A DNA stretch of 63,974 nucleotides, the filler included, from Eremomyces bilateralis CBS 781.70 (lineage: Eukaryota): NCBI GenBank assembly GCA_010015585.1. It is 11 parts of 8 records of this genome, joined end to end, with 100 filler letters (N's around TTAATTAATTAA, not from the genome) between each part and the next. Parts side by side here need not be neighbours in the genome. Positions count along the whole stretch, not along the records: positions 43,611 to 55,488 come from ML975153.1; 10 more parts are not named here. One strand, given 5' to 3'. Below are positions 6,136 through 61,931 of the stretch, piece by piece. The notes under the pieces were generated by a model. It had not been told where the DNA came from, did no database searches, and worked only from the letters and a program-made list of their open reading frames with translations. The position numbers and the translations under genes were made by a program. Position 1 is the stretch's first letter; the number at the start of each line of letters is the position of its first letter.

Positions 6136-6235
6136 NNNNNNNNNNNNNNNNNNNNNNNNNNNNNNNNNNNNNNNNNNNNTTAATTAATTAANNNNNNNNN
6201 NNNNNNNNNNNNNNNNNNNNNNNNNNNNNNNNNNN
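6136..6235. other. artificial contig spacer N44-TTAATTAATTAA-N44 (also at 7300, 31793, 38899, 40834, 43511, 55489, 56850, 60720, 61832)
   Basis: Ten identical 100-bp N blocks with a central six-frame stop linker. Confidence 0.99.
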
Positions 6236-7299: not shown

Positions 7300-7704
7300 N
7301 NNNNNNNNNNNNNNNNNNNNNNNNNNNNNNNNNNNNNNNNNNNTTAATTAATTAANNNNNNNNNNNNNNNNNNNNNNNNNNNNNNNNNNNNNNNNNNNNG
7401 AGCATCAATTGATTGAGACATTGTTGTTTGTAGACCGAGTGTCGCGTTTTCTGGTTGAGGTGGCGGCTCGCTTGTAGTGGCGGCTCGCTTGTGGAATACG
7501 TTATTCATACTTCTACAGTGCCGACCTACCAATACTGGCTGTTTCTGATGGATGAGTATGACCTTTAAAACCTAATGACTTGATTCAGCGAACTCCGTTA
7601 TGACATGCCGATCCCCCCCAGTTGATTTGACCCAGACGGTACTGTTTGAATTTTCCTAATCACTTGATGCTACCTTGTTCATTCTTCTCACGCAATCTTA
7701 ATTA

Positions 7705-29193: not shown

Positions 29194-29599
29194 CTTGTTT
29201 GAAAGTAAGTTTAGGAACGTAACCGTGGATAAAAGTCAAAAACTACTCTTGCGGAGGAAGTTGAGATAGAGACAGAGACGTGACGACTGAAAAAACAAAC
29301 CGGAAACTTAGATGAGCCAGACTTTATATTCTATCTGATTCCTATCAAGTATTTGGTACGGTCATTTCAGGGTATGAGAAGCGAGGGCGGCACAGCAGGT
29401 CTGCTTCGAGTTAGCGCAAAATTAAACTTTGTTTTTGACCGCTTGTGGCAGTCTCTGGGGTATTTGAGGCGGCCTGAATGGGCTAAGCCTGTGACTTAGC
29501 ATCAATTTTAGCACCCGCGGAAGCGGGCCGGTGCAGATACAAGTTACGACTTTGGCGCGCAATTTGATGTTACTTTTGCTGCCTTTTCAACTATCCCGT

Positions 29600-31530: not shown

Positions 31531-31892
31531 TATATTGTTACAATGCTTGGCGTGCAACTCGCAAAAAAAAACCAGACTGCCAAATTTCGGTAACGACTCT
31601 TGCAATCCAAAACCACCAAAACCACCAAAATCTACCAAAATCTACCAAAATCAAGTTTCCTTAATTACTGCTTATCACAAGTACTAACTATAATAAAATC
31701 CCGCAAGGATCTACCCTATCACCCGCGCTGTTTATCCTATTTATATCTGACCTACTACAACAGTTTAAAGATGTTCAGGGTAACGTGCTCGGNNNNNNNN
31801 NNNNNNNNNNNNNNNNNNNNNNNNNNNNNNNNNNNNTTAATTAATTAANNNNNNNNNNNNNNNNNNNNNNNNNNNNNNNNNNNNNNNNNNNN

Positions 31893-32966: not shown

Positions 32967-35900
32967 TTAGTTTGAAAAATGCGGTTGCCTTCTCAATCGA
33001 TGACTTTGCTCATCCGACATTGACTCTTCGATAACTTTCCGTACTAGAATATCTTCATCCTCTTCAAGTGCGTAGTTTCTAGGATCGTCCAGTATCTGGG
33101 ACGCGTGGGGTCCCTGTACTTGAGCACTGGGCTCGCCACATTCTTCTGCCCCTGCGGCTGCTTGACGTTCTTCCTGCCGAGGGCGTTGAGGATTGATGTA
33201 GGTATAGACCCGGGCTGCTTGACGATAGGGCTGATTCGGAGACGCCATTGGATTGTCCGCCGGGGAGAGAACCCTGGATTGGTAGGGAGGCGGGTCAGGA
33301 AAGGGGCCGCGATTTTCAGGATATGTCCGGTAGCCTCTAGGAAAGGCACTGTAGTTTGGATTCGGTGCACGAAGAGGCCGAGTGTCTGGTGGCGGAAAAT
33401 TCCATGTTGGAATAGGAGAGAGCCTGCTCGGGGTATGTGAAGGGGGGGAAGAAGGGAAGGGTCTAGTTGGGATAGGAGATTGCCTGCTGAGTATTGGTGT
33501 ATTCTCACCGGAAAGACCAAAGTGTCTGCTTGGATAAGAAGGTTGGCTGTGAGGATAAGGAGAATGGCCACCTGGAAGAGGTGATTGTCGGTTGGACGAT
33601 GAGCCCACCCGCAGGTACCCCTCATCACTAAGATGGCGCTCTTGCTCAGCTCCAGTGTGTGAAATTTCGATATCCGAAGCAGAATCTCGCTCTGTGTCAT
33701 TTTTGTCGGCTCTAATTCCTTGCCGTGGCAGTGTGAAACGAGTACGGTCGCGAGGTATCTTCATCCCACCATGGCTCTCACTTGAGGAGCGGATGAATAC
33801 AACGTGTCGCTTTCCTCTCCTAGCCATTTGACTTTGCATTTCCTTGGCGTTTACGGGAGTTGCCAAAGACACTCCCCGGGACATCCAGTTCTCAGGACTG
33901 ATGACCAGATGTTGGGGCCCTCCAACATCAACCTTCCGGAAATTTGCCCCTTGGGGGTCAATCTTGACTCTTGATGCCTCCCAGAGGTTTGCTGTAGTGG
34001 TTATCTGCGTTTGGAGCACAGTCTGGGACTTGGCTTCCGTGATCGTACAAGTACTTGTACTGTGGTTTGGAACTTCGCATTCCAGACACACGTCCGCCAT
34101 TATGGAATAGCTGGCGGTTCTGTCCGAGTCCATCAAAAACTCAGCCCAGTTGTTCTTCTTCAAGCTTAACCCAACAGCCCATTCTTGATGGTTGTGCAAG
34201 AAGGCGACCTTGAACTTGTCTCCCCGGAGGCCAGTGCCATCAAGTAGATCGAGTACGCATAAAACAAGAGCTGCCATATCCTTTCGGTACGAAAAATGAT
34301 CAATCCAAACTTGCACTATAGCATACTCACTCTCATTATCTAGTGCCTTCAGGAAGTCACTTCCCCAGCGCGTTGTCGTCCAACCGGGCCTCTGTATTTC
34401 CAAAACAATTTCCAGGCTCTTGCTCAAGAGAAGCTCTTTCACGGATATCCGTCTTGCATTGCCTGTACAGCTGCTGATTTCGACCCCAAGGGCATGATTC
34501 AGCCATGCTGGATTGGCAGACTCGGGAGCCTTTCTCCATCTGTTTCTCACGGCTTGTTTCAGCGGGATTCCCGGCATCTTTTTCTGTCCGACATTAAAAC
34601 TGCCGCTAGCAATTTTGGAGAACCCGATTGTTGCACCACGGGTTTCAGTCTCCCATTCGGATGGCTTGGTGCCCAAAGGGCCGAACAGGTCGGAAAAATC
34701 GGCTTCGAAGTTGTCCATTGTGTATGTGCAATCACTGTTGTACCGATAGGGACCACCGATTAACAAAAGATCGTTCGCGGAAAGCAATATATCGTTCGGC
34801 TTGGAAAAGCGGTGGACAAGTCGCTTCTTGAGGTAGTATGAAGTGCTATTATACCAGTGACAACGGATTGCATTCTTGAAAGCCGGCGCCTTGGAGGCTT
34901 GAAGAGGGACAATAGCCCCTTTTGCAACTTCGAAGTGCTTGATTTCGCATTGTTGGGACTTGTTCTCGATAGACGTGACCGCATAAACAGGACCCCACAC
35001 ATCTGCGAAGGCTTCCATAGTTGTGAGGATGGATAGTCTCTTAAGGGCTCTAGAGTTGGGTGGAACCATCCCATTTTGTTTGAGAGAGCACTGGAAGACC
35101 CATGCTTTCTTCCCATTCAGAAAGCCGTCAAGGCAAGCGAGGCCTCCAAGATTGCAGGAGACGTTAAAGGCTCCATTCTCGAGACCATCAACGCTGACGT
35201 TTGCTACGTCTTTATCCATGCACTCCAGGTTGAATCGACTCCCATGAGAGCCCGCGTAACTGACTAGTGCAAGGTCGAGGAACAGTGCTATCGCTCGAAC
35301 CAGGACCAGAGGTGAAGAGACATCTGCAACAGCAAGTCCAACCATTTCCATGAACGACTTGCTTATATCCCGCAGGTCTTCCAAAGTGTCAAGCATGTCG
35401 TCTCCGTTTAGAAGTGATCCAATTACTGTCTCTATTCCCTCGTGGAAGTTGCAGAGCCAGCCTTCCGAGACCTGCTTAAGTTCTGCAATATTCTCGCCTG
35501 GACAGAGCAGAAGGAAACTGAAATAGGCAGAAGAGTCAGCAAGACCCCAATTATGGCCATCTCGGGGTCCATGGGCGAAGCAGCCGGTGCATATTTCAGG
35601 CATCGTCTCTTTGCGTTTCCATGCCGATCTTGTCTTGCATTCTCGGCACATCCAACCTGCGTTAAAACCACCTGCAGTGCTAAAAGCCGAGCGCAGATAT
35701 CGGAATGACTCAAGGACTTGCCATACGATGCAGTAAGTCTTCGTGAGATTTCGTAATGCAGCCTGTAGCTGCCTCCAAGACTTATCGAACTCGTCCATTG
35801 GTGTGCCACTTTCAATCGACTGATCTAATGGAATTTGGCTGAGCCAGCCCGGCAACTTCGCTCTTAACTCTTCAACATTGCTGATTTGGTGATTCGATAC

Positions 35901-36423
35901 ACTGTAGATTCCGCCAAATTGGGCGAACTCTGACGCTTCCACTACATGCCGTTCGATGAAGTCAAGCTTCGCATAATACGCGTCTGGATCAACAAGGTGC
36001 AGATCCGCGTCGAAGTTCCCAGCTCTTGCAAGTTCTTCCCATGCTTGTCTGGTCTTGTCAATTTCGGTTTCGTTAGCTATATCTGAGCATCTCTCTGGCA
36101 GCCTGTGCGTAGAATCCTCATCTGGATACTGAGTACCTAGACGTAGGATGAGATGAATTGTGGACTCCCTCTGGATGTTGAAATCACGCATAGTTCTTTG
36201 GTTGAATCTACCCTCGAGACTCTTGCCGGCGAAGATCCATCTATGCGAATCCATCGGTATCTTTTCTTTCTCGGATAGTAGCTTCTTCGCTTCTGCAATG
36301 GTGGTAGTGTGGTCGACTTCAAGAATAATCGGGCCTCCGGTCACTATCGTGCGATATTAGCTGACTTGAGTATAGAAACTCCATCCGACAACACTTACAC
36401 CCTTGGACATAGATCGGGAACAT
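32967..36423 (-). CDS. about 1130-aa protein: N-terminal ubiquitin-like domain, CxxC...CxxC insert, uncharacterised fungal domain, Pro/Ser-rich tail
   Basis: Exon 1 MFPIYVQG spliced (intron about 36344-36398) to LTGGPIILEV...IPMDSHRWIFAGKSLE...DFNIQRESTIHLILRLG (no GG). WMCRECK...ICTGC; GVEISSCTGNARR. Confidence 0.85.
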
Positions 36424-38898: not shown

Positions 38899-38998
38899 NN
38901 NNNNNNNNNNNNNNNNNNNNNNNNNNNNNNNNNNNNNNNNNNTTAATTAATTAANNNNNNNNNNNNNNNNNNNNNNNNNNNNNNNNNNNNNNNNNNNN

Positions 38999-40833: not shown

Positions 40834-40933
40834 NNNNNNNNNNNNNNNNNNNNNNNNNNNNNNNNNNNNNNNNNNNNTTAATTAATTAANNNNNNNNNNN
40901 NNNNNNNNNNNNNNNNNNNNNNNNNNNNNNNNN

Positions 40934-41428
40934 GCCTCCGCGTCGGGCGATAGCACGGTCAAGATCTGGGAGGCGAGTAGTGGCGCGTGCCTGCAGACGC
41001 TGGAGGGGCACAGTAATAGGGTCCTGTCGGTGGCCTTCTCACATGACTCGACCTGGCTCGCCTCCGCGGCGGACGATTACACGGTCAAGATCTGGGAGGC
41101 GGACAGCGGCGTCTGCCTACAGACGCTCCAAGTTAGGAAGGCACTCTGTGACATATCATTTGATGCTACTGGTTTGCATCTTCATACTGAAATCGGTACC
41201 ATCGCTCTTGATACGTCATTGGCTTCATTTAACTCCTCAATTATAACGAAGTCCCAAGGTCCACGATATCAAGGATGGGGATTAAGCTCAGATGGAGCGT
41301 GGATAACATATAATTCCGAGAACCTCGTGTGGTTACCCTCGGAATATCGGCCGTCATGTTCGGCCGTGTCCGTAAAGACTGTAGGTATCGGCGTTGGATC
41401 TGGAAGGGTGTGGATGTGCAGTTTCTAG
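40934..41428 (+). CDS. C-terminal WD40 repeats and tail of a HET-E-like NACHT-WD NLR (5' end missing)
   Basis: ASASGDSTVKIWEASSGACLQTLEGHSNRVLSVAFSHDSTWLASAADDYTVKIWE and tail WLPSEYRPSCSAV. Confidence 0.9.
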   Translation, partial: ASASGDSTVKIWEASSGACLQTLEGHSNRVLSVAFSHDSTWLASAADDYTVKIWEADSGVCLQTLQVRKALCDISFDATGLHLHTEIGTIALDTSLASFNSSIITKSQGPRYQGWGLSSDGAWITYNSENLVWLPSEYRPSCSAVSVKTVGIGVGSGRVWMCSF

Positions 41429-41559
41429 AATCCACAAGATCGTTGATAAGCTCGGCCTTTTGCTGGACATTCCACAACATACACATCTGTGGATTTCAAA
41501 TGATCGTTAAAATATCAGAACAGAGCAGTAATTCCTCAGCCCCAGCGCCTCGATCTCTC

Positions 41560-42958
41560 GCTCGGCAACCTCTACTTCACTCTTCCGTGTCTTTTTGGCG
41601 CCCAATACTGCTGATACAGAACTTTTTGCGCTTTCGACCACGTTTTCCTTTCACCAGGATAGCTCTTTTTCGCATCATGCTTCGCCTGGGCCTTGACAAT
41701 GTCCTCATAGCTTATCACTTTTGCCTTACCGGCTACCGTTGACCTAGCTGATTGGCGACTGTTGCTTTCATTGTTCTGCTCGAATAAGAGCCGGTTCTTA
41801 CCCAGAAGAAGGGCGTGTTCAGCAAAGGCCTTTTGAGCGGCACTGGCGAGTTTTTGCAAGCGGTGTTTGCTCGGACCGTCTAGGAATTGAGCATCGTCTT
41901 CGATTTGGATTTGCAGCGGTGGGAGGGCCTCCGATGTCACTGGCGTTTGCAGCCATATGCCTTGTAGACAAGATTCCACCTCCATTTCATGATCCTCCGG
42001 AGCGTACAATTCGGCTAGCGGCTTCTGATATCTCTAAGTACCCTGTCGGGGCTAAATGGATATAGACCTGTCTTCGACTAGCCGGACTTGATGTTTCGAG
42101 AGGTGAGCGCCTGTTCACGCGCACGGCTATAGCGAGAGGCAAAATGCAGCTTGCCGACGGTGTTTGCACCTCCTCGATACAATGGTTTAACCTGTTCGCG
42201 ATATGCAGACTTCAGTGGGCCAAAGACTCCGACGTCACAGGGCCGCGGCTTATGGGAGTTGTGCGACGGAATGCGGCAAAGGAGAATGTTGTTTTCAAGG
42301 CAATACTCCATCACTTCGAGCGACTCACGGGTTCCGAAGCCGTCACAAATAAGAACACGCGGTTTCTGATTCGCCTGTGCTTTAGTTTCAGGGTCACACA
42401 CACGTTTGACCCAGTCCAAGCTGACCTTGGAGTCGTGTATCCAAATTGGGAGCATATTACAAAATGCCATCATGGGTTGGGGTATGTAGTCCATGTGCTT
42501 CGATGGGTCGCGCTTGGCCAGATGATCAGTGGAAAGAGAGATCTACTGTTAGCAGAGATACACTCGATCGCGGTCGCCATTGTCCGCTCGACACCGGCGC
42601 CTCTGTGAGTTCGCAGGTCGTCCTTACCTACCAGGACTTTGAGGAAGCTGAGCATACTCAACATGACTCCCGTTTCGTCCAATGTTGTAATTACCGCATG
42701 GGCGCTGTCAGCGGGACAGTATAATATGCCGAGAAAAGTGAGGGAGGCACAGCAGGCTCCAGCTGTCGCATTTCGCGGGGGTGATGATTAAGCACGTTCG
42801 CTGCTTAGCTCAGTTGCTGTAGAGTCACAACGCAAGTTGGTCTTGACGATTTCCATTGTCTCCTCAAAAGGGGATCTAGCTAGCAAAACAGTTGAAGATA
42901 ACTAACCTCCCCCCCTGCGTGATGGAACGCCCGCCGTGCTGGAACAAAATCGAGGTAC
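41560..42958 (-). mobile_element. degenerate Fot1/pogo (DDE_1) transposon
   Basis: YN-DETGVML, AIECISA, VLICDGFG, PCDVGVFGPLKSAY, LTSRNIKSG, with frameshifts. Putative 5' TIR near 42920-42958. Confidence 0.85.
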
Positions 42959-43377
42959 TTTGACTTCAAACCCACTCAGAGGCTCTGTGCATGTTGTAAT
43001 TCTTATGATTTCATATAGAATAGATTTTCTAGCCACTCTTAAACATCTAGGACTTTGTCAAACATAAAAAATTACAATTGCATGGTCGCCGATCAGCAGA
43101 TTTCAGCGCAGCACTCGGAATACATCGTCCACGCCGCGACAGTATTTCCATGCTACAGCGCCACCATCATCATATTTCCTATTCAAAAGGCTATAAGATA
43201 AATCACTCTAAGCCATAAATCCCGTTCTAATGCTAGAAGTCCTTCATCCAGAGCATGCGTTGTGTTCGAAGCGATTTCAAATATTTCCACTATATAGGTC
43301 GGTACTTGCAGCCGATCACACTTCCTCTTTCGGCGACCTATAGAGTACAGCCACAGGGCTATTACATAATTAAGAAT

Positions 43378-43510
43378 TGTCGCAGACCAAGGTTTCATCT
43401 AAGGGAGCTCGAGGCTACAAACTGCATTAATAAACTTGCCACGAATCTCATATATCTGGAGGGCCAGGGGACCAGGCATTGACATAAGAACACGCAACTT
43501 GAACGCAACT
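43378..43510. repeat. partial LTR copy (inverted relative to 54845-54977), cut by the gap
   Basis: 133 bp starting TGTCGCAGACC; one visible mismatch to the reverse complement of the solo LTR. Confidence 0.9.
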
Positions 43511-43610
43511 NNNNNNNNNNNNNNNNNNNNNNNNNNNNNNNNNNNNNNNNNNNNTTAATTAATTAANNNNNNNNNNNNNNNNNNNNNNNNNNNNNNNNNN
43601 NNNNNNNNNN

Positions 43611-46600
43611 CTGTCGCTCGACGCCGACGCTACCACCTTGCCGTCCGGCGAGAAGGCCACGGCCTCGACCGGTCCCCCGTGGCCCTCGAACGTCTGCAGT
43701 AGAGCACTCCAATCATTCTCGACCTTGGGTAATCTTTGCATCCATCGAGGTATCCGGTCTTTAAACTGCCTCCTAACTATACTTATAGTAGGTGTAAAAA
43801 TCAATGCACTACAGTAGACCTGTAGAGGAGCGTACTCTAATACTGGCTGGTTAAATAGTGCAAATCTTTTGGCATCTTGAATAAACTCGGATAGACGGGG
43901 ACAGTCATGTTCCTGAACTAAATTAAGCTGGAAGACTCGTGTAAAGCGTTTGGTGTACTTACAAGGGCAACGGACTCTAAAGAAGTAATTGCATAGATCC
44001 CTTCAGAGATCCTCCGCATCCAGCTCAGCGCCTCAAGCCAATGTAGTAAGTGCATCTGTAGGAACTGATGCACTAAGTCGTTGTCATGAAGCCGAGTATC
44101 ACTCTTCTGAAGATGCTGAACCCAGCAGAGACATGCATATTGAACCTCCGGAGTAAAGTATTGTTCCACTCGATTGCTCGATATATCAGCTACGAGCACA
44201 CCTGGAGCTTTCATTCCACAGATGTCTTGCTTAAGAGAGGTGGACATTAACTCTATGCACCTGGCGGCTAATATTCCCTGAGCTTGCTTCTCGTTAACCC
44301 AAAAGTTTAAATCGTTGCATCTCTTCTGGTCGAGGAGGAAGTCGCGAAATGAAGGGTGATGCAGACGGAGCGGCCGGATTAGGTCATCCGGGATGTCTAG
44401 GATGGAATGCAAATCACCTAATGTTCGAATAACTTGCTCTGGGCTGACTTTAAGCAAACGAGCCAAGGAAAGTATGGAAAGAGGAGAAAGGAGAAGAACA
44501 ATACTTCCAGCCGTATCTTTCAATAGTTTGTACCATTTCTTTCTTTCTTTCTTTCGAAGATTTCCGACACTGCTTCTAAGAACGGTAAGGTAGATTTTGT
44601 TCAGCTGCTCATTCGGTGCAACTGCGGAGTCGTCAATGGAAGAGATATCTGTTTCGGAGTCATCCGTCGAGAGGGGATCTTCTATAAGACTGCCCTGAAG
44701 GATTATGGACAGCCTATCTGCCGCCAAGCTTCCGCCTTCATGAATATAACGACATGCGGTTGCGGCCCAGATAAACAGCCCACTTGCACTCTGAACCAGA
44801 TGTGTAATGGCATCTTCACCCGGCCAGCCAGCACCGAATGAGCGTTCCTGCCCAATAAGGCTCAGTTTACTTTCTAAGAAAACAGTGATGTCGTGGTTTA
44901 TAGTCGACCGCGAGATGTTATGAAGGACGAAATCTTTGTGTTCTGTATCAGGCATCTGACAGAGCCCGTATCGAATCGGAATTTCAGGTCTGCTCGTTAA
45001 AAAGATTCGTATCCGTATCTTCGTCACCGATCGTGTCTTGGCTAAAAGTTGTAGAATTGTCCGGATATTGTTTTCATCAGCGCACTCATCGAGGGCATCA
45101 ACGACAAGAACGTATGAGGATCGGGAGTCCTTGTCGTCTAGCTTCAATAAAGGACTGACGATAAGATGCTGCCATTGGTCGCGCAGAGACTGGTTAGCAA
45201 TATCGTTACGCTCCGCAATAGCGCCACAAATGTGTCGACAGAGATTAGGGACGTTCCTTGCAAGCTGCACGGCAATGCTTGTCACGAACTTGACTGCATG
45301 GCCAACATCTCCACCGCCTCTTGAGAAGAAGAAGCTGGCCCCAAGACGGCCATTCTCTAAGTATGTACGGGCAACAGTATGAGCAATCGTTGACTTTCCC
45401 GTTCCCGCCAGACCGTTCAGCCAGAAGATACTCCGTTCATCTTGGCCACCAGCCCAGTTGAATATTTCCTTCAGAACATCGACGCGGGTATTGGGGAGAC
45501 AGGTCGATTCGTGTTGCTTTTGAAACGAATTGAATAGAGCTTCGGCAGCGATCGGTAGGCGATCTAGTTCTTTCTCTGACGGCATCTCTGCAATGAGCAT
45601 TCTATTCCTTGGATTTCGGCTCTCAGATGTGGATTCACGATCTCCATTTGCGGTCAGCGACAAACGTGTTTCACAGCCCTGGAACTGCAAACATTACTCA
45701 CGCGATTGCCCATCCGATCCTGCTGCTGGCTGGACGGGGTCTTCCAGTAGTCGCTGCAGGTAGGGGACAAGATCCGAATAACTTGGCCCAAACTGTAATC
45801 GTACCAGAGGCTGGTGACTGAGAGAATCTCCGGTCCGAACCAAAAGACAATGTCGATTTGGAATATCACTCTGATGTTCGCATGCCCATTTCAACAGTGC
45901 GCTGAAGTTTGGGTCTTCCAATCCGGATCCACAGCCAACAAACATCATCGTGTAAGTATTCCAAAGCGTTCTTAGCATACCCTGAATATCATCTGAGTGT
46001 CTAACCTCATAATAGTCCGTTGCGTCCAGGATAACATCATTGGGTGTGTGGTAGCTGCCGTGTATATGGAGGATCCCGCGCAAATCTCCACTTTGGAACT
46101 TTAAGATCTCTTCATGATTAGACTGGTTGATGCGGCGCAAGTTGCAGTAGCCTTCTTCGAAGAGATCGTCGTAGTTCGTTGTAAGCAGCATAGCTCCTTT
46201 CTCATGAAACGATTTTAGAACATCGAGCACGGCTGGGTGCCTAACTTCCTTGGAGAGACCGTCAAACACTGCTTGTAACCAGGTAGGCAGCTGACGGGTC
46301 TTGTCGAGCAGAGATTTCAGAATACCTGCCGCGTCGAGCAGATCGTCCAGATCAGGATTGGACTGATCGAGTATCTCACATGCACGCTTCAATCTTCGAT
46401 TATTTCCCTCAACGTGGCCATCCGTGACAAGATAGTCCAAGCCATGTCGTATCAGGCCTCGCCACGATATTCGAGCGAGCGATTCGCCTAATACCGTTGA
46501 TGTTGCGCTGATTGTCACTCCAGCCCCAATAACAACCACGAGCTTCTTATTATTCAAGGCAACTCTGATCCGGTCTAGGCGCTCATTCTCGATCCTCGTA

Positions 46601-46682
46601 GCCTCTGCGAGGGCTGGGGCCTTTACGAAGACTTGTCAGTACAGTTCGAGGCTGAATAGGGCGGACATACTGAAGTCGCCAT
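43611..46682 (-). CDS. NLR: SIR2_2-like effector domain + NACHT NTPase + WD40 repeats (3' end lost in gap)
   Basis: SIR2: VVVIGAGVT, LLTTNYDDL, LHIHGS, FVGCGSGLEDPNF. NACHT: CLPNTRV, WLNGLAGTGKSTIA, VVDALDEC, FLTSRPE, HPSFRDFL. WD40: FEGHGGPVEAVAFSPDGKVVASASSD. Introns 46621-46670, one starting at 45701, and about 43912-43962 keep the frame. Confidence 0.92.
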
Positions 46683-47479
46683 CTTCACACTTCTCAATTA
46701 ACTTTAGTAGAGCCAGCACGAAACGCGCAGAAAGGAAACCATAAGCTGGAAAGCAATGCTCGTTGAAAGTCACTTCGCCCAGTCTAAAGAGGTAGTCGCA
46801 GGAGGTGAAGTAGGTAAGATTGTAGAGTTTTAAAGGTCGGAGAAATGATTTGTAGGTAGCATGGACACGATCGCATCCCAGCCTTGCGTCTTGCGGTGCC
46901 GCAGTTGCTCGCCCATCAGGTAAATTCGCAGGCAGACACTCAGCTGTAGTCAAAGACCCTACCAAGAGAGCATGTAACTCATTGGCGCTTTGGTTCTACT
47001 GTCTACAAACCCGATTGACCTGATAGATCGGGTACTGTACCCAGTCACCTCAACCATTTGAGCGGTCTTTAGAGACTTACTGATGACCATACTCCGTATA
47101 GCGGAAAAGGTTATGCTGAGACGTTTCAAGGTTTGGCGCCATGTTAGCCGTTTAACAGTATGAAGTATCTCCCAAGACGGTGTTCAACTGGCCCCTACAC
47201 TGAATCTAAATTTGGACTTTTGGAGAGTGAGAATGAGAATGTGTGACAGTGTGAGGGGTATGCAGCGACGGCTCAAGGGGATGATTAGACCTACCCAGTT
47301 GGGGAGCGCTAAACCAAACCGGGGGACTAACCATAACCCCACTTACTGGAATAATTATAGCCCTTGGTGAACTGGTTGGCCTCGGCGAATTAGCAAGGAA
47401 CTTCATCACTCAGTTACTTACTAGCCCGCTTATATGTTTATTCCCTTCACACCTATTTGAATAGAATCACGAGAGTAAC

Positions 47480-48579
47480 TGCTCTCTGTGTTATCCAGTG
47501 GCAACACCCTAGGACTGCTCCGGCAGAAGTCACTAATTTTGAGCACAATCCGAGTCTTATACGGTCATTTTGTTACCAGCTACGGCTGTGGAACATATCC
47601 GTTGCTCCCCTCCGCTCTTTCAGCGATGGATTGCGGCTTCAATTATGATTGCATGGTCACTATGATATGCAACAAGAAACATTTCGAAGTCCTCTTGTCG
47701 CCAAAAGTACCCCCAGGTTACGATGATGAGCAGAGCATCGAGGTCGAATTACTCCGAAGGAATGACCGCGCGATGCGGGCCGGCAACAACAACTCAAGGG
47801 GATAAAATATTGGAAGAAATTATGGATATCCTTGCAATTAACTGTCAGCCCTTTTTTTCGCGAATTTGCTCTGTCGTTGACGAGAGCAACCGGGAAGGTC
47901 TACGCGACTTACTCAACCCCGAAACCTTCACGTTGTAGTTGGTCACGGTCAAAGGGTGTTTGGAAGTCGTCAAACAACATACCGTGCCTCATGAGCGGAT
48001 CCGCCTACCCCCAATTGCAACCCCCAGCGGTTTGCCTGTATATAACTGGGCAGAGGTGGAATTGCCGGAAGAGGTACTAGGAGATAGGATAGTGAAGGTC
48101 TCTGTCAATGGCCTCACCAATTGGGACAAGACGGTCACCAACTGCACGAACGGAGAAGTTGCTAGAGAAGTCACTTCCTTCCAAATGGCGGCGGAGGCCA
48201 ATCCTTCTCTTGGCGTCCCTAAGCCGGTAGGGCTTGTCAAGTCAGATGATGACGAAATCGTTGCCGGTCTGTTCAACTACATCGACCACGATCCTAAAAG
48301 CCCAACACTGAGCAAGATCGAGATAGTCGCCGTGGAGAAATCTCGACGAGAAAAAATAGGCCACTCAAATCCGGGACGTCACCACTCAACCCCACGAGAT
48401 CGACTTCATCTGGGCGACGGGAAAGCAGGGACTATTATATTGACAAGGACGACGATGATGCCTGAGTTATCGACTTCGGAGGGGGATGGACCGATGGATG
48501 GCCGACGCAGGAGCTTGCTGGGACCGTCGAAGGTGACTTCGTAGCACTGGAGAAGATTATTGAATTCCTCAAAGTGTAG
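47480..48579 (+). pseudogene. protein-kinase-like pseudogene
   Basis: VPKPVGLV, GDGKAG, and in a shifted frame IDKDDDDA*VIDFGGGWTDGW; several stops and frameshifts. Confidence 0.7.
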
Positions 48580-48808
48580 CGGACTAGACGCCGTGTGGAA
48601 GTTGTGAAAGAGTTTCTGTGCGGTCACACGGAAGGGCGCAAAGCGTCTCCACTGCAACAAGAACGCATATCGAAATTGGGTGCTAAGCGGTTAGATACTT
48701 GTGAAGGAATAAGGGAGCGAGAATTTGCAGTGGAAGAGACCAAGCCGATACCAGAAACAGTGCATCCAATGATCCGCGTACGGATAGACAAACAAAAATG
48801 ACATTGAA

Positions 48809-51342
48809 CTAGAAGAGATCTCTTAAAATATTCGACAAATCCTCCTCTTCCTGCCCGAACATGAATCCAGGCCGGTCCAAAGTAGTCCCCTGCGGCTGGC
48901 CCATCTCCCCCGGCGGTTGCACCATGCTCGAGAACTCTCCGTTCTGCGCCAGCCCGGAATACCCGCCCGCTGCCTCGAACAAATCCGTCAGATCGTTCGC
49001 CATGCCATTCGGACTGTTTTCCATGCCGTTCGCCCCGACCGCGTTGCCCATCCCGGAATTGCTGCTAGCTTGTGAGGCCATCCCTAGATTGGTCGAAAGC
49101 ATGGACGCGTGGTTCATCGGGTGGCCTGCGAGGCCGGCCATAGCGACAGCAGCGTCTGAATGAGGATCGCTTGCTTGGTTTCCGGCGCCGGAGCGTGAGC
49201 TGAGGTTAAGACCGAGCTTTGGGGAAGCCTCTTTCACGTTGCGAAGGGTCTTCCACAGACGCTTGGAAGCACCGGAATTAGCGGAGAATCCCCTGATGAG
49301 GTCGACCGCCATGTTGAATTCGTCACGGACTTGGCTTGTATATTGCTGCGGGGCGTGACACACGGCGAGGATGAGGACGGCGACGGCGGAGATGAGGAAG
49401 TAGTTGAACAACACTTTTCCGTTGCTATAAAGCTCGGTCTTCTGGCTCATCTCGGTGAGGATGCGGAGGGATTCTTTGGCAATATCGACAACGGTGTCGG
49501 CGTGGCGGATATTGTCCTTGATGCTTGCTGTGTTGTGCAGGATCGGTCGATAGATGAGAATACGCATCTGGTTCCGGCGAAGGAGAAGGATGATTCTGAG
49601 CCTGCGACTAACGCGACTGTAGCGGTCGCTTTGCGGTATTGCAGCGGGTGGCAGATATTTCAAAGATTCCGGGAGGGAGCGATGCCATTCCAGAATTTCG
49701 TAGTCAAGATATCCCATCTCGCGTTCATTGAAAGTCGCTTTCGCTCCATCCCAATTCGTGATCGAGCGCCAGATCTTCGAACCAATCCTGCTATAATCGA
49801 TCATGGCCAATAAGTACGGAGGCCCATCCTTTCGGCATATCAGTAAGATTATTGGATGATTCTGGCCTCTATTAGTGTGCACTTACCGGTTGTAAAACCC
49901 GGGGATCAACATCGAAATCCTGCATCGCAAATGGTAATCCGCAACCGAAGCTCCATCGCTTATCCAGCACGTACATTGACCAGAAAACCCGGGTTGCAAC
50001 AGCTCTCTCAGGATAGGTAGTCATCTGCTTGTGGTACGTTTCGGTTCGATGTAGGCCAAGTTCGAAGCACAGTCTCACCGCAACCCCGACGATACGCCAT
50101 GCCAGGCACTCATCGTCCCGGTGGAAGTGATACATGGCCTGCAATCCATATGTTAGTGCTGAGTTGTGTTTAACCAAAGCGGCCAGCTTACTGCAACAGC
50201 TAACATCCTCACATTGTGGAGGCTCGCGCTGGACGTCAATTGCTCCTCGATATAGCAAGCAATGCTGTCATACAACTTCTTGCCAATGTCACTCTTTCCA
50301 GAACTGTCCAGCATGAGTGTGGTGGCTAGCACCACTTTCAACAATATCGTCTCGGGATCAACGAGAGCGTCGGGCCCAGTCCACCCCGTCGTGCTGAACC
50401 CCGTCTTCACCGCCGCCTCCAGGAATTGATAGACGTTGTTCGCATGCTGCAGCGTTTGCGTCACATCGAGGACGGGGTACATGACCCCAATCTCCTCCTG
50501 CCATACCCTCACCAACCGCACCGCTTCCTCCCGCGTGAGAAGCCACAACGGGTCCTTGCCCATCGGCATCGCGGACTTCGCATGCCGCGGGTGTGGACTA
50601 GCCCTCGGAGTCTCGTCCTGTGTGATCCCCGCCTCCTCGAGCGCCTCATCCGACGCGCCGATACCCATGCCCTGGAGGCTCGAATTGGCCACTCCGAGAT
50701 TGTAGGCGGAGGAAGTGGGGCCGCGGAAGCGCTGCTTGTGGGAGGGAGGGGGGTTCGGCGAGGGCGAAGGGAGGCTGGGAAGAGGGAGCGCACGCTGGTC
50801 GACGGGCTGGGAGAAAACGGGGTTGGTGGCGAGGGTATTGAAGCTCGTTTCGACGCTGTCGCGGAGAGATGTGAGGTTGGTGAAAAGGGTGTTGACTTGT
50901 TGTTGGAGGGTATCGATGTTCGTTTGCATTCGTTTGAAGTCCCTTGGAGGCGTGAGTAGATGCGGTCGAGCGGTATACGGTACATTGCTGCTTACTCGGT
51001 GTCTTTGAAGTTAGTGCAACAATTCGGCGCATACACGCAATCGAGACTCAGGTTTCCGCATCTCTATTTCCCGGAACATGGTCAGTTTGGTCCCGGATTC
51101 GCAGGATCTGGTTGTTGATACCTGGCATGGAGTCTTGCCATCGCATTTGATCTTTCTTCGCTTGCACTCATTGCTATCCTCATTAGCTCTACTTCTGGCC
51201 CGTCGAGCACATAGTCATACCATGCGATGGAAATATATCGGTTCCTCTTCGCCCGCTGCTGTTGTCCGCTACTGTCGGCCTTTCTCTTGCTCCCGGAGTG
51301 CCTGTCCTCGGAGCCCGGGCTGAACGGCTCAGGATCCTCCAT
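48809..51342 (-). CDS. Zn(II)2Cys6 transcription factor with fungal-specific TF middle domain; multi-exon
   Basis: Spliced [60 protein letters not shown]. Confidence 0.93.
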
Positions 51343-51762
51343 GGCTCAGCGGTTGGATTCGCCTAGCAGAAATAAGAAATGACACGATTGCGCTGACCAA
51401 TAATCCTTCAACTGCCTTGTGTTTGGGATAATTATGGATGGGTGGAGGGAGATAGAATGACTGGGTCTACGAGGGTCGTCCCTTGCGACTGGGTTCTGAT
51501 ATCCCAACCTTGCCCAAGCAGCATCAGGCTAACCGGTTACGGCAATAGATATTGACTGAAATGCTTCTGTGAGAGTTTAACTGCACGATATGATCGTTGG
51601 AATTCGTAAATTATGTCGCAATAGAAGATTATATAGATCTCTGGTCAAGGCAGCGTATCCAGGATTTACCTGCAAAAATCAAAAGATCACCTCTTCCTCG
51701 CTGAGAAGCATCCAGGAACCACAGCCCCGGCACAGTCCTGGCATGGTATCATAGCTAAATGC

Positions 51763-53767
51763 TCACGCTCCGCTGACGACACTCTTTGCATTGGACAGCG
51801 CCTGAATTCCGTAGTCAAGGGCAAAGCCGAATCCAACCCTCAGAAACCCCTTCAAATCCGCCAACTTCAATCCGACCTGCCTTGCCCGGTATGTCCCCAC
51901 GCAGGCAAGCGTGAGAAGCAGAAGCTTGGTCGCCCTAGACAACCGAAGCTTCCATAGCCCCTTCGAGGTGTAGTTGAAGTGGAAGTCGCCATATCGCGGG
52001 AACATGCACCTGAACAGGAACCATACCTGGGAGTATCTGCAGGAGAAAATGTCAGCGCACAGCTCAGAAGGTATGTGCATAGTCGGGATACTCACGGAAG
52101 CACAGTTGAGTTCCATCCGTCCTTATGATACCAACTACTGCAACCGCCCTTCATCCAAATCGTATCCTTCAGCTTGTCCTGGATATCAGCCGTGTACGCG
52201 ATCTCCGCCTCTTTCTTCACCTCCACCGTCTGCACGTCGCCCTTCAACACGGGCTCCATGAACTTTAACGAGAAGTTCACCATGTTCTCTGAAGCCAAAA
52301 TGACGGAACTGTGCCCGGTCGCGGTATTGGGTCCGAAGAGGAAGAACATGTTGGGGAATCCGTCCATGGCAGCTCCAAGGTACGCTTGCGGTCCGCCACG
52401 CTCGTCCCAGACGTCATACAGCGTCTTGCCGTCTCGACCGATGATCTCAAGCGGATGGAACCAGTTGTACGCCTCGAAGCCGTTGGCGAGTACGATGATA
52501 TCCGCATCGATTTTCCGTTCAGGTCCTAACGCCTTCAACTCCTCCTCCGATTTGCCAGGGCCAGCATACAAGGATCCAGGTCCAATGACCACGCCATCCT
52601 CCTGAACCCTCGTCAACGGCTGGGTTGTTAGCTCTATTTTCGAATCGTTCAATCCTGGGAACCACGTTGCGTCGAAAACCCGTCGCTTACAGCCAACGCC
52701 GTAATCCGGGGTTAACATGTCATGGTATTTTGCGGGGACAGTCTTCTTCATGTGCCTGAGGAGTTCCTTCTCAGAAGCTTTTCGGGACCACGTCGCGATC
52801 TTACCACTTCCAAACATGATAAAGGCGGATTCCGCGATGCCAGCGACCACCCATCGGACGAGCTTACCGAATCCAGGGACGCGAGTAATGAGCGTTCGAC
52901 TGTTTGCCTCCCACCACTCGTTACCACCCGGAGGCACGATGCGGGGACACACCCATGGCGGCGACCGCATGAGTTGGGTCACGGATTTGGCGTTGTACGG
53001 AGCTTTTGTCAGCGACGGAACGAACTGCGCGGCGCTACAACCGGTTCCCACCACCAGAACGTTCTTGTCCGTCATGTCCACCGAGTAATCCCATCGGGCG
53101 GAGTGGAAAACCGGTCCTTGGAAAGTCTCGAAACCTGGGATACCCCTTGGCACACCGGCTGGCTCGACAAGACCTCCAACACCACTTATCAGCATCTTGG
53201 CTCTGATTGTCTCAGTTGACGAGACGACAGCACCCGCTCCTTGTTCGTCCTGTACCCGTTGGCGGTCTTTTGCTGAAAGATCTCCCATCCCATGGACGAG
53301 ATGACGGAGCTCCACCTCCCATAGCTGTTCGTCTTCCAGCCATCGACACGAAGACACGTCTGTATTCAGCTCGATCTTGTCGGTGATCTGGTATTTCTCG
53401 CACACGTCGTGGAGGTAGTGGACGATCTCCGGGCCGTCAGGGAAGAACTTCGTCCAGTTGGGATTCGGGGCGAAACTGAAGGAATAAAAGACCGCCGGGA
53501 CGTCGCAGGCAACCCCGGGATATCTGATCGTGGAGCCTTGGTCAGCAGAAGTACGGTTTCGTGGGACCGAGCATTGTACCTGTTGATCCACCAGGTGCCT
53601 CCAATACCGGCCTGCCTATCGAAGAGTCGGAACTGGTCGAAACCCAATTCTGTCTTCAACCTGACGGCCATGGCGATTCCCGATTCTCCAGCACCGACGA
53701 CGACCACGGGGTAGTATGTATATGCACCCTCCCCATACCCCTTTACTCGACGAATGGCTTCCGGCAT
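51763..53767 (-). CDS. flavin-containing Baeyer-Villiger monooxygenase
   Basis: VVGAGESG, GGTWWINRYPGVACDVP, BVMO fingerprint FQGPVFHSARWD, VGTGCSA, GCKRRV, LANGF; hydrophobic C-terminal exon. Confidence 0.92.
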
Positions 53768-54751
53768 TGTGGACGTTTGCTGCCTCAACGCTTTGGACAG
53801 TTGGTTCCAGCTCTACTCGTGATAGACGGGCTATGTACACACTTGTCTTCACAGAAGGGTCGACCACTTCTGGACGATATTAACGCTGTTTGCTTTGAAT
53901 GGTGAGGATATGCGGAGAGCGGTCAAAGTCGTGACTTTGTCAACCACTGACCGAGCTGAGTTGATCAAGCGAATACCGAAAGAGGAGGGGATTGGCAAGT
54001 GTATAAGGGTAAAGTTTCGTGGCCTGAGAAGTCTCAGATGCGGAGGTTACACGCGGAGCGTCGCGGACGAGCATCGACGGTCGAGTCAACTTAGGCCTCG
54101 TAGTGGTTGATTACAGATTGGGAGAAGTCGTAATTACGATTTAGGAACCGTCCTGGGAGTCCGGATAGAGTTAGCATCGGCCAGAGGGAGCACGAGGATA
54201 GGTAATTAATAGTTCAGGGCCAAAAGAGAGCTGCGTAGCGCATAATCGGCCCATTCCGATTTCCCCATTTCTGACCATGGCACGTGAAAACATGACATCG
54301 AAGCGGAAGCTTCATCTTGCATGAAGTTTCCTTACCGAAAGCTCGGTTGTCCGAATGAGAAGCTCTGAGAGTCTGGGGCAGGACAGGTGCGTACAAACCA
54401 CAAGACGTCAACAAAATTCCTATGCCGACGCAACACTTCAGGATTTGAAATATCCCCTGTGGTGAAACGCTGAGGGATTTGAGCGTATCTGATCCGATCT
54501 GGGGTCGTGATCCGGTGCCAGCTATGTTAGGCCGCTAGGGAGCCGTAGCCCGTAACAGCTCGTATCTCCAGAGTATGAATAGTACGGATGAATATTCACT
54601 CCGCGTCAGATGGATATTCCCCGCAATCTGCGTGGATCTCCCTGCAGCTGGCGGAAACTATACGTAGCCTGTCCGTCCGAACGGCACCAATCGGCAATCG
54701 GCCAATCCGGTCTGGGTTGGTCCAATCATACAAAAGACGGCCCAAACTTTA

Positions 54752-54977
54752 TGTCGCACGTGATGTGCTAAAATGGTTGGGAGTGAGGTGCTGTTGTTCC
54801 GGCAGCGAAGTTGTTGTATTGTGTGTGTGATCTAGGTATCTGAAAGTTGCGTTCAAGTTGCGTGTTCTTATGTCAATGCCTGGTCCCCTGGCCCTCCAGA
54901 TATATGAGATTCGTGGCAAGTTTATTAATGCAGTTTGTATCCTCGAGCTCCCTTAGATGAAACCTTGGTCTGCGACA
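54752..54977. mobile_element. solo LTR (226 bp)
   Basis: Termini TGTCGCA...TGCGACA, 5-bp TSD CTTTA at 54747-54751 and 54978-54982, second copy at 43378. Confidence 0.9.
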
Positions 54978-54998
54978 CTTTAGGATGGTTTATTACCG

Positions 54999-55082
54999 TT
55001 TAACTAAGTTAGTTAGTTAACTAACTTAGTTAGTTAGTTAAGTTAACTTAAGTTAGTTAACTTAACTTAGTTAGTTAGTTAC
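54999..55082. repeat. low-complexity array of TA-(GT/AC/AGT/ACT)-TA units
   Basis: taactaagttagttagttaactaacttagttagttagttaagttaacttaagttag...; similar short arrays abut Fot1 TIRs at 24871-24892 and 60904-60927. Confidence 0.8.
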
Positions 55083-56629
55083 ATAGAAGTCAGTTAGTTG
55101 GGCCCATAATTACCTAACAAGTCACAGCAGATATTCAGATTTCAGATAACTACCAGTTATTCAGATTTTAAATATGTTAGTAAGTTAGTTAGCGGCACGT
55201 TGGGTGCATTGGGGCAGATCCGATCAAGCCATATTATGTGACTTTAAGCAACGTGGCGGAGAGACATTCAGGGACTGGGGACCTAGATGCCCTGACGACC
55301 AGAACGACTTCATGATTTTGGTTGTTTCTGTACTCTACCTGATGCTAAAGTACTAAGGCTAACTAAGCCAAAAGTCTGCGCACAGGACCCATTCTCACCT
55401 GAATATCTCTACACCCACCCCTTACTTTGACAATCAATAACTTTACCAAAATGAGGTCTTTTGGCACAAAAATAAGTGGTAATCGAGGNNNNNNNNNNNN
55501 NNNNNNNNNNNNNNNNNNNNNNNNNNNNNNNNTTAATTAATTAANNNNNNNNNNNNNNNNNNNNNNNNNNNNNNNNNNNNNNNNNNNNAGCGGACGGGAT
55601 GCCCTATATTCAGGTTGATATGGCCGTATGTAGTAGTAATTGAAACTTTTCACAATATCAACCTAGCAATCTGCAAAATTCAATAAAACAAAAACAAAAA
55701 CATATAGCAATGGGAGTTCCCCTATGGTCTCCTAGCGGTATAAACGAGGTCGAAAACAGAGGGTTAATACCACCGAAAGACGAGGGCCCGTCGAAAATAC
55801 TCTCTGGTAAGGATCGTAATGATGCCCTTTTCTTGATAGATGGGTGCGTGGGTATCATTCACGGAAGTACACCAATCGGACGTGTTCGGTAAGATACATG
55901 TATTGGTACGTATCTGCAAGAAAGGAGAAGTATAAGTGGTGGGTTTTGGACGAATCAATTGCCTTGTGAAAGTTCAAATGGCGCTAACCTCATATGACAT
56001 AATTAATAGCTGCAGCGGTGAATGTCTTGGCGACTGGTCGAAACAAAGATTTGGACTGTGCTTGCGAGGAAGCCAATTTCGCTAGTGATTGTACTGTACC
56101 TTTGCGGCTTTGCCGGTACAGCCGAAGCTTGTCGACCCTGGATTCTGTAGGCCGTTTGCTACCAAAGGAGGTCGGGGCACTGAGGTAAAACACTAGGGGC
56201 TTTGTTGGCTGTACCGCCGACAGGAAATTAGGGGTTCCGAATATGTCTCCACGCCAAAGCTTAAGACGGCTGTGTTGATCATGCAGGATCACGCTTAGCC
56301 TATTTTCCCCTCTCTTACTAGCTGATTTCAACCTATCTCCGTCTGACACCGTTCAACCCCCTTTTTATCACGTGTTTTCATCTCCAGATACGATATATCT
56401 AGATAGACGGTCTTTACCACAGATACTAGAGAATCAGATCACCTTGACCATCTAAACATACAGTCTGTTAGGTCCTGTGTTTCTCCTCGTTTTCTTATAC
56501 GAGTACAGCCTCACAACTTTCATCGGTCGCCTACCTAATCCGTAAAGCATGAACCCCCGAAAGTCCATCAGGCTGCTCACCGTCAACCATATATACGGCC
56601 GTGGGCAAGAACACTAGGACACTGGAGAG

Positions 56630-56849: not shown

Positions 56850-57060
56850 NNNNNNNNNNNNNNNNNNNNNNNNNNNNNNNNNNNNNNNNNNNNTTAATTA
56901 ATTAANNNNNNNNNNNNNNNNNNNNNNNNNNNNNNNNNNNNNNNNNNNNTCTGGCATAGGAACTGGACTGAAATCTGTCTATTGACAAGCAAGACGATAG
57001 CATATAACTATAGGAAGAGGAAACGGGTCGGCCCGGAACAACAAATTCCCGGAGAGATAT

Positions 57061-60420: not shown

Positions 60421-60819
60421 ATTGAAACGCGAAATGATTAAGCAGTGAGCAGAATATAATAATAATAAGAATCAATTTAACGTACTATCTGGATCCCTTT
60501 CGGGTCTATGAGCACGATATTCTATCTGGTCTGCCGCGGGCAAAAGTTTCCCCGTAGCCCTGAGGCTGCGGGTACATAAAATCCCGCCTCCTCCCTTTAG
60601 TAGACTATCTCAAACGTTTATCATCTATCCGTAAGAGTCGGTGTTTCCGCCTACGCGGAGAGCTTATTCTGGCACGTCGTGGAGGAACTGGAACGGTTTC
60701 CAGTCCTCTATTACCTCCTNNNNNNNNNNNNNNNNNNNNNNNNNNNNNNNNNNNNNNNNNNNNTTAATTAATTAANNNNNNNNNNNNNNNNNNNNNNNNN
60801 NNNNNNNNNNNNNNNNNNN

Positions 60820-61656: not shown

Positions 61657-61931
61657 TAGTTAAGCAATAGCCTCTGACACTCTCAATAGGATCCAGGCAT
61701 CTAGAAGGGATGCCTTAGGCACAACTCTGACTCACCACAGCAGGGCGCATACCGGGGTTTATGTAATCGTCTATTGACTGTTAGTATCCCGTTACGGCTG
61801 CAAACGGTAAAAATTAGCACTTGGCTACTTANNNNNNNNNNNNNNNNNNNNNNNNNNNNNNNNNNNNNNNNNNNNTTAATTAATTAANNNNNNNNNNNNN
61901 NNNNNNNNNNNNNNNNNNNNNNNNNNNNNNN

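Follow-up and report, generated by a model that had tools for sequence, protein, structure and literature searches.

A SIR2_2-NACHT-WD40 gene of Eremomyces bilateralis: a candidate fungal NOD-like receptor with a predicted NAD+-acting front domain

The window, by which we mean the whole 63,974-nucleotide stretch of Eremomyces bilateralis CBS 781.70 DNA that was analysed, carries on its minus strand, at 46682-43611, a gene of four exons for a SIR2_2 domain, a NACHT-type nucleoside triphosphatase (NTPase) and a first WD40 repeat. A first-pass annotation had taken this locus for a fungal NOD-like receptor (NLR) in which a SIR2 effector, resembling the bacterial defence proteins ThsA and DSR2, stands in front of a NACHT-WD40 receptor, and had proposed that canonical introns join its open reading frames (ORFs) into one gene. 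Its best relative is P0003, an annotated protein of 1188 amino acids (aa) from the same strain, to which we refer throughout.

Gene model and splice evidence

Three long minus-strand ORFs lie here, at 45694-46557, 43918-45690 and 43559-43804, exactly where the annotation had placed them, and in the model given in Table 1 all four exons are open in frame. The part of the model that matters most is the joint between the SIR2 and NACHT exons, and the evidence for it comes from X1, a single public sequencing run in which 59% of the words sampled from the stretch occur and whose kind is guessed to be RNA, no run being on record as RNA. Namely, one X1 contig of 1747 nt, near-identical to the window (one letter differs), matches 45913-45702 and 45641-44107 and leaves out exactly the 60 nt between them (45701..45642). 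The skipped segment is CT..AC on the plus strand and thus GT..AG on the strand of the gene, while the X1 depth in the bin 45591-45700 is 31.0, as expected from the spliced contig alone. Because the contig is near-identical to the window and yet precisely lacks a canonical intron, and given this depth and the zero cover above 45913, complementary DNA is the likeliest source of the contig.

The annotation had put a GTGAGT donor at 45701, after GQS and one C, and had left two acceptors to choose between; donor and reading frames are as it described, both acceptors being in frame, and since the skip ends exactly at 45642, the proximal GAG|AT acceptor is the one in use. The distal CAG acceptor, giving an intron of 114 nt, is ruled out by the spliced contig and by P0003. 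Once spliced, the junction reads GQS-H-RESTSES, and P0003 has ...GRFHRESTSES... at the same place.

Would two separate genes, a stand-alone SIR2_2 gene ending at the TAA (45696-45694) and a NACHT-WD40 gene downstream of it, account for the locus equally well? The raw ORFs are indeed separate, and fungi commonly have SIR2_2 proteins that stand alone and are about 300 aa long. However, the X1 contig joins both exons over a precise GT..AG skip and, by doing so, contradicts transcripts that end at the TAA at 45694, which had been set beforehand as the sign against a single gene; therefore, the two-gene reading loses. What is more, the junction peptide matches annotated full-length homologues, and the only ATG codons that the NACHT ORF offers ahead of its conserved domain are those of Met14 and Met19 of P0002. 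Two genes are, in our judgment, highly improbable.

The remaining joints of the single-gene model are of a different standing. In tblastn, residues 1-849 of P0003 match 46626-43960 (66% identity) and residues 850-948 match 43909-43613 (74%), and intron 3 is placed between them because the match breaks there with a 50-nt gap and a change of frame. A TAG acceptor at 43918 for this intron was ruled out as out of frame. It can also be observed that intron 2 is cleanly removed in X1, whereas intron 3 is seen there only unspliced. In other words, the annotation's proposal of joined ORFs stands for intron 2, where a transcript-like contig crosses the joint, and has homology behind it for intron 3: the spliced contig puts SIR2 and NACHT on one polypeptide, and NACHT is joined to WD40 by homology only.

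At the 5' end, the exon 2 frame has no in-frame ATG from an upstream TGA (46638-46636) to a Met at about residue 144 of P0001. For this reason a short exon 1 is predicted, with which the N-terminus becomes equal in length to that of P0003. X1 gives no cover above 45913 (45921-46900), a blank which is uninformative on expression.

Table 1. Predicted features of the SIR2_2-NACHT-WD40 gene and artificial joints of the window
Feature	Position	Strand	Description
Predicted exon 1	46671..46682	-	ATG and three codons (M-A-T-S); read from the sequence, without X1 cover
Predicted intron 1	46621..46670	-	50 nt, GTATGT...AAG, with a CTGAC branch-like site; in phase with exon 2; outside X1 cover
Exon 2, SIR2_2 (P0001, 306 aa)	45702..46620	-	Pfam, PADLOC, FAM118B match, AlphaFold2, Foldseek; whole fold about 46548-45748
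Asn codon of TTNYD (N149 of P0001), predicted catalytic	46174..46176	-	From alignment
His codon of HIHGS (H187 of P0001), predicted catalytic	46060..46062	-	From alignment
Intron 2	45642..45701	-	60 nt, GTGAGT...GAG, phase 1; contains the TAA (45696-45694) that ends the SIR2 ORF; X1 contig
Exon 3 (P0002, 559 aa)	43963..45641	-	Linker, NACHT NTPase (about 45468-44953), helical region
Intron 3	43913..43962	-	50 nt, GTAAGT...CAG, phase 0; inferred from homology
Exon 4, cut	43611..43912	-	NACHT-WD linker and first WD40 repeat (about 43702-43613); stops at contig edge
Artificial contig-join linker, cuts the gene	43511..43610	.	100 nt, N run + TTAATTAATTAA + N run
Linkers	6136-6235, 7300-7399, 31793-31892, 38899-38998, 40834-40933, 43511-43610, 55489-55588, 56850-56949, 60720-60819, 61832-61931	.	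N + TTAATTAATTAA + N

At its 3' end the gene is cut. Position 43611 is a contig edge within the first WD40 repeat and not the end of the gene, and only this first repeat is present, while homologues carry several. The cut is made by one of ten linkers of 100 nt, each consisting of N + TTAATTAATTAA + N, where none would be expected by chance; consequently, the window is eleven contigs strung together artificially, and gene order and orientation across the linkers are meaningless. The contig carrying our gene is 43611-55488, and the sequence left of 43511 cannot be read as its neighbour. Near-identical repeats are expected to break assembly contigs inside a WD40 array. The summed depth of X1 contigs reaches about 10,000 at 43611-43720, in the first WD40 repeat, whereas in the NACHT exon it is about 67. 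Near-identical WD40 repeats of paralogues probably pile up at 43611-43720, which would also account for the break in the assembly. On the plus strand of another contig, 40934-43510, a frame that is already within a WD40 repeat at the contig edge (40934-41428) encodes two repeats and then an NWD-type C-terminal tail up to a stop codon (P0225). P0225 is 39% identical to residues 1027-1183 of P0003, and the first bases of that contig resemble, without fully matching, the loose ends that X1 contigs have at 43612-43614. The frame may be the missing 3' end of our gene or, equally, that of a paralogue.

The SIR2 domain and its relatives

The domain assignments of the annotation (SIR2_2, NACHT and WD40) all score above the curated Pfam cut-offs. 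For exon 2, the match is to SIR2_2 (PF13289; E 1.3e-18, 67.9 bits against a cut-off of 24.5), and in the defence-system library of PADLOC the same exon matches Dsr1 (4.1e-13), ThsA (6.8e-11) and LmuA models. All the motifs that the annotation had picked out, i.e. GAG (in VVIGAGVT), TTNYD, HIHGS and FVGCGSGLEDPNF, are found in the translation of 46620-45703. It had also noted that a zinc-binding insert is missing, and this agrees with what we see: P0001 has five cysteines and no CxxC pair, and in Pfam the canonical SIR2 family is unmatched by exon 2 at E<=0.01, SIR2_2 being the sole match. To judge by its translation, then, the domain is without the zinc-binding module of canonical deacetylase sirtuins.

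Among all sequences of the PDB, the best phmmer match of the domain is human FAM118B (E 5.5e-23, query residues 25-291), followed by DSR2 (1.1e-5), SeThsA (1.3e-5) and KomC (0.026). Counted along the PDB alignments, N149 of P0001 aligns with N163 of FAM118B and N133 of DSR2, and H187, the second His of HIHGS, with H206 and H171, respectively. Neither residue varies in an alignment of 28 domain-sized relatives. According to PMC12700824, mutation of N163 (N163A) or of H206 in FAM118 prevents NAD processing. An AlphaFold2 model of the domain, built with the 28-sequence alignment, reaches a pLDDT (predicted local distance difference test score) of 91.6 and a pTM (predicted template modelling score) of 0.89. 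When this model is compared with the PDB by Foldseek, FAM118B again comes first (E 2.2e-12, template modelling score 0.68), followed by DSR2 chains from 7.8e-8, BcThsA at 3.2e-7 and KomBC, and no canonical sirtuin stands among the matches listed to rank 50, which are only FAM118B, DSR2, ThsA and KomBC. A complex prediction with two copies of the domain, made without controls or the alignment supplied for it (score 0.00, mark 0.32), yields no verdict and is given no weight either way.

The likeness to ThsA and DSR2 on which the annotation had built is therefore borne out at the level of fold, but FAM118B is nearer in sequence (5.5e-23 vs approximately 1e-5). That said, the identity to FAM118B is only about 25% (Foldseek). 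Since the FAM118 clade is defined, in PMC12700824, as vertebrate-specific and at least 41% identical to the human FAM118 proteins, by that definition the domain is a non-FAM118 SIR2_2 protein. Taken together, sequence and model support a domain of the immune SIR2_2 kind, similar to FAM118B, DSR2 and ThsA, which would be predicted to cleave NAD+.

How widespread is this domain, and in what company is it found? A scan of 1.84 billion representative proteins gave 2177 matches at E<=1e-3, 1451 at E<=1e-10 and 78 at E<=1e-30. The Pfam families seen in these 78 are SIR2_2 (73), NPHP3_N (9), ankyrin (6), TPR_10 (4), NB-ARC, NACHT, SH3 and NHL (2 each) and WD40 (1). Matches to proteins longer than the domain number 80, the first 23 of which (P0003-P0025) are 41-70% identical to it. 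Ten of these 23 have a NACHT-type domain, and in P0003 and the Zopfia rhizophila protein P0017 it is accompanied by WD40; the rest are six fusions to PNP_UDP, four proteins with ankyrin only, and one each with TPR, with SH3 and with SIR2_2 alone. Bacterial SIR2-NACHT proteins come next, at 28-33% identity in the SIR2 part. There are also 203 matches of similar length at E<=1e-10, the best 120 of which are 49-66% identical and mostly have SIR2_2 alone, with five carrying an N-terminal HMG box and one TPR repeats.

Several of the close relatives (49-59% identity), namely P0004, P0005, P0008, P0010, P0013 and P0014, are fused to PNP_UDP and have no nucleotide-binding oligomerization domain (NOD), and the HMG-box group (P0434, P0442, P0448, P0450 and P0453) is listed beside them. 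The nucleoside phosphorylase domain PNP_UDP is itself a known front domain of fungal NLRs, and we found neither the PNP_UDP-SIR2_2 nor the HMG box-SIR2_2 fusion discussed in the fungal NLR and SIR2 literature that was searched.

The annotation had called for a phylogeny against bacterial homologues, and a rapid maximum-likelihood tree was made for 59 SIR2 domains, hand-picked to cover each architecture rather than sampled without bias, and with FAM118 left out. In it, the 44 fungal-type rows form one group, with a support of 94 in the Shimodaira-Hasegawa-like approximate likelihood ratio test (SH-aLRT), apart from a five-row clade of bacterial SIR2-NACHT proteins (100). Three further SIR2-NACHT rows from bacteria, as well as two TPR rows, belong to neither of these groups and sit on open forks. 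Within the fungal group, the NLR-linked domains are scattered among stand-alone, PNP-, ankyrin-, TPR- and HMG-linked ones. The label 'NLR' needs ten changes, at least six of them forced by well-supported branches, and ten is not a lower number than shuffling gives (500 of 500). The SIR2 domain of the window belongs to a seven-row clade (100) together with P0003, P0006 and four stand-alone proteins.

The receptor chassis and known systems

In contrast to its front domain, the remainder of the gene is of a familiar make. Exon 3 matches NPHP3_N (E 4.1e-32, 112.1 bits against a cut-off of 24.8) and NACHT (E 7.9e-7, 29.5 bits against 26.7), and contains a Walker A motif, GLAGTGKST (45414-45388), and a Walker-B-like VLVVDALDEC; exon 4 matches WD40 (PF00400; E 1.6e-7, 32.0 bits against 27). 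On its own, the NACHT part matches 2510 longer proteins in a search which scored only the 8000 candidates sharing most words with it. The best 120 of the 2510 are fungal NACHT-WD40 proteins at 51-67% identity, several of them named HET-E-1, after the protein which the annotation had cited as an example of fungal NACHT-WD receptors. Among these 120, the front domains are HET (PF06985) in at least 25, PNP_UDP (PF01048) in several, SesA (PF17107) in at least three and RelA_SpoT (PF04607) in at least one, and PF13289 is visible in two of the matches listed, again P0003 and P0017. To judge by these matches, the receptor is an ordinary NLR chassis of the HET-E/NWD type with a rarer front domain. The shared features are the NACHT part and its linker, the Walker A and B motifs and the WD40 repeat that follows, and it is at the N-terminus that the two differ: HET-E/NWD proteins carry HET, PNP_UDP, RelA_SpoT, SesA and others there, whereas our gene carries SIR2_2. 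They are, moreover, linked to heterokaryon incompatibility, in which our gene is not known to act.

The closest known architectures are those of P0003 and P0017 (1176 aa), which have the same domain order and are colinear with our gene. P0003 matches over residues 1-948 at 66-74% identity, across both junctions, and the junction peptides of P0003 and P0017 are the same as ours. Both proteins are complete, with several WD40 repeats and a C-terminal tail, whereas the copy in the window is cut after the first repeat; full-text literature searches found no experimental study of either. A similar design, N-terminal SIRim followed by NACHT or NB-ARC and repeats, is described in a preprint (10.1101/2024.09.18.613514), which states it for fungi, as SIRim clade A; FAM118B is the human member of that lineage. 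The repeats described there are ankyrin and TPR, while those of our gene are WD40. By its architecture, and with FAM118B as its best PDB match, the domain would fit SIRim clade A, a placement for which the support is indirect.

Human FAM118B (PDB 9r3e and 9r0p) is the nearest solved structure and its catalytic Asn and His align with ours. It is, however, a stand-alone vertebrate protein which has neither a NOD nor repeats and which, according to PMC12700824, forms head-to-tail filaments and needs FAM118A. With DSR1/DSR2, ThsA and the bacterial SIR2-NACHT proteins of the bNACHT type, our gene has in common the SIR2_2 fold and the catalytic pair and, with the last of these, the order of domains as well. 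Yet its NACHT is of the fungal NWD type and its SIR2 domain groups apart from the five-row bacterial clade. It has neither the SLOG/Macro domain of ThsA nor the long C-terminal sensor of the DSR2 type and is, therefore, not a member of either family.

Other open frames of the window also have recognisable domains. On a different contig from our gene, 18941-20881 (plus strand) is an open frame of 647 aa with a HET domain (PF06985, E 7.9e-30). A frame with an OTT_1508-like deaminase domain at 26062-27063 (plus strand, E 7.3e-16) shares its contig with one with a T5orf172/MUG113 domain at 27358-29232 (minus strand, E 1.2e-10). The frame at 32970-36353 (minus strand) has 1128 aa and, as its sole Pfam match, an N-terminal ubiquitin-like domain (E 2.4e-13), while that at 245-871 (plus strand) has a weak match to a BED zinc finger (E 2.3e-4) and is possibly the remnant of a transposase.

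Proposed mechanism and its alternatives

On balance, we think it rather probable that the locus is a single Pezizomycotina receptor gene of the STAND (signal transduction ATPases with numerous domains)/NLR kind, in which SIR2_2 is the front domain and clustering of this domain would lead to consumption of NAD+ and to arrest or death. The WD40 array would bind a non-self or modified-self ligand and so release the NACHT domain, which would then oligomerise; the SIR2 domains, brought together in this way, would become active as NADases and consume NAD+, and arrest of growth or cell death may result. These steps are drawn from established knowledge of STAND/NLR proteins and of SIR2_2 enzymes, and from 10.1101/2022.07.19.500537 and PMC12700824. 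Such a receptor would have its parallels in the bacterial SIR2-STAND/bNACHT proteins, DSR2 and ThsA on the one hand, and in further enzymatic domains at the front of fungal NLRs on the other. The SIR2 module may thus be one interchangeable effector on a common NWD chassis, a view suggested by two observations: the NACHT part is common to proteins with varied front domains, and the NLR-linked SIR2 domains are scattered in the tree.

A number of points weigh against this account and should be stated together. To begin with, the RNA nature of X1 is a guess, and exon 1 with its start codon is a prediction. Next, the assembly has lost the WD40 array after the first repeat, and the intactness of the whole gene is therefore not demonstrable. 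Furthermore, a spliced form of intron 3 was not found in X1, whose short contigs cross it unspliced, with no joint listed, and the contig spanning this intron has a depth of 66.3, as compared with 66.8 for the exon-3 contig; if retained, intron 3 would stop the frame at the TAG at 43920-43918, before the WD40 part, and possibly give a SIR2-NACHT product without WD40. Some of the 'stand-alone' rows of the tree, in addition, may be split gene models, which we suspect because the raw ORFs of this very gene would have suggested a stand-alone SIR2 too, and this would weaken the count of shufflings. Full-text literature searches, finally, returned no experimental study of any fungal SIR2 NLR, be it enzymatic or genetic.

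Could it be, then, that the locus mainly yields a sensor-less or non-functional product, either through retention of intron 3 or because it is an NLR paralogue in decay, with its 3' part missing or damaged? The unspliced contigs and the break within the first WD40 repeat would both agree with it, and paralogues abound in NLR families of this type, as the 2510 NACHT-part matches indicate. However, X1 contigs show presence and not absence, so that a spliced minority form of intron 3 may exist, and a contig break is just what near-identical WD40 repeats lead one to expect. The four exons are, moreover, all open, and exon 4 is in frame and 74% identical to P0003, which argues that it is coding. 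For these reasons we consider a sensor-less or decayed gene very doubtful.

A more serious question is what the SIR2 domain of the proposed receptor does. According to PMC12700824, FAM118B is a weak NAD processor which needs FAM118A and the formation of filaments, and its authors consider a role in signalling. Since the best match of our domain, in sequence as well as in fold, is weakly active and dependent on a partner, depletion of NAD+ to the point of death is not the sole reading, and this, too, counts against the account given above. In particular, the domain might be no killer at all but a FAM118-like weak NAD processor, a filament scaffold, an ADP-ribosyl transferase or a maker of a signal, with the receptor signalling rather than killing. 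The very many stand-alone fungal paralogues of SIR2_2 (203 near-length at E<=1e-10) speak in its favour, and the fusions to HMG box, SH3 and PNP_UDP fit a wider cellular role better than that of a suicide effector. On the other hand, the domain occupies the N-terminal position, which is where the cell-death and enzymatic effectors of fungal NLRs sit, its Asn/His pair is strictly kept in all 28 relatives, and its identity to FAM118B is well below the threshold of the FAM118 clade. Bacterial proteins with the same order of domains are, besides, described in 10.1101/2022.07.19.500537 as defence effectors that target NAD+. Weighing these arguments, we regard a signalling or scaffolding role as unlikely, though by no means negligible, and retain NAD+ consumption by clustered SIR2 domains as the preferred account.

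One can go further and view the fungal SIR2_2 domain as a freely shuffled NAD-acting cassette, used alone or with PNP_UDP, HMG box, SH3, ankyrin, TPR, NB-ARC or NACHT. When part of an NLR, it may do more than drain NAD+, either by assembling into filaments like those of FAM118 or by producing a signal derived from a nucleotide, and a sensor-less SIR2-NACHT isoform, with intron 3 retained, may regulate the full-length receptor. This is a speculative and, in our estimate, quite unlikely scheme.

To what extent is any of this new? The annotation had remarked that SIR2 is not among the usual effectors of fungal NLRs, and this was a fair remark: in term searches, neither 'SIR2' nor 'sirtuin' occurs in the main texts of Dyrka 2014 (PMC4986451), Wojciechowski 2022 (PMC9815663), Sordariales 2025 (PMC12258605), a cell-death review of 2025 (PMC12881547) and Daskalov 2023 (PMC10197012). 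The novelty which it hinted at does not hold, however, given the same architecture in P0003 and P0017 and the prior reports. Namely, the preprint 10.1101/2024.09.18.613514 describes such NACHT/NB-ARC proteins with ankyrin or TPR repeats from animals as well as from fungi, and the supplement (file 2) of the 2022 census, PMC9815663, lists at least nine rows with 'SIR2' among fungal NLRs, one of which, RDW58657.1, is our search match P0122. A WD40 version of the design goes unmentioned in the accessible text of the preprint, the supplementary tables of which may list such proteins. The architecture and the idea are, in other words, already in the databases and the literature, and the locus adds a further example together with splice evidence, and not a new principle.

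That said, if the SIR2 domain is indeed a NADase triggered by oligomerisation, a biochemically tractable effector would be added to the repertoire of fungal NLRs. In that case, the non-self recognition of fungi would also be directly connected with the NAD+-consuming logic seen in bacterial SIR2 defences and in human FAM118.

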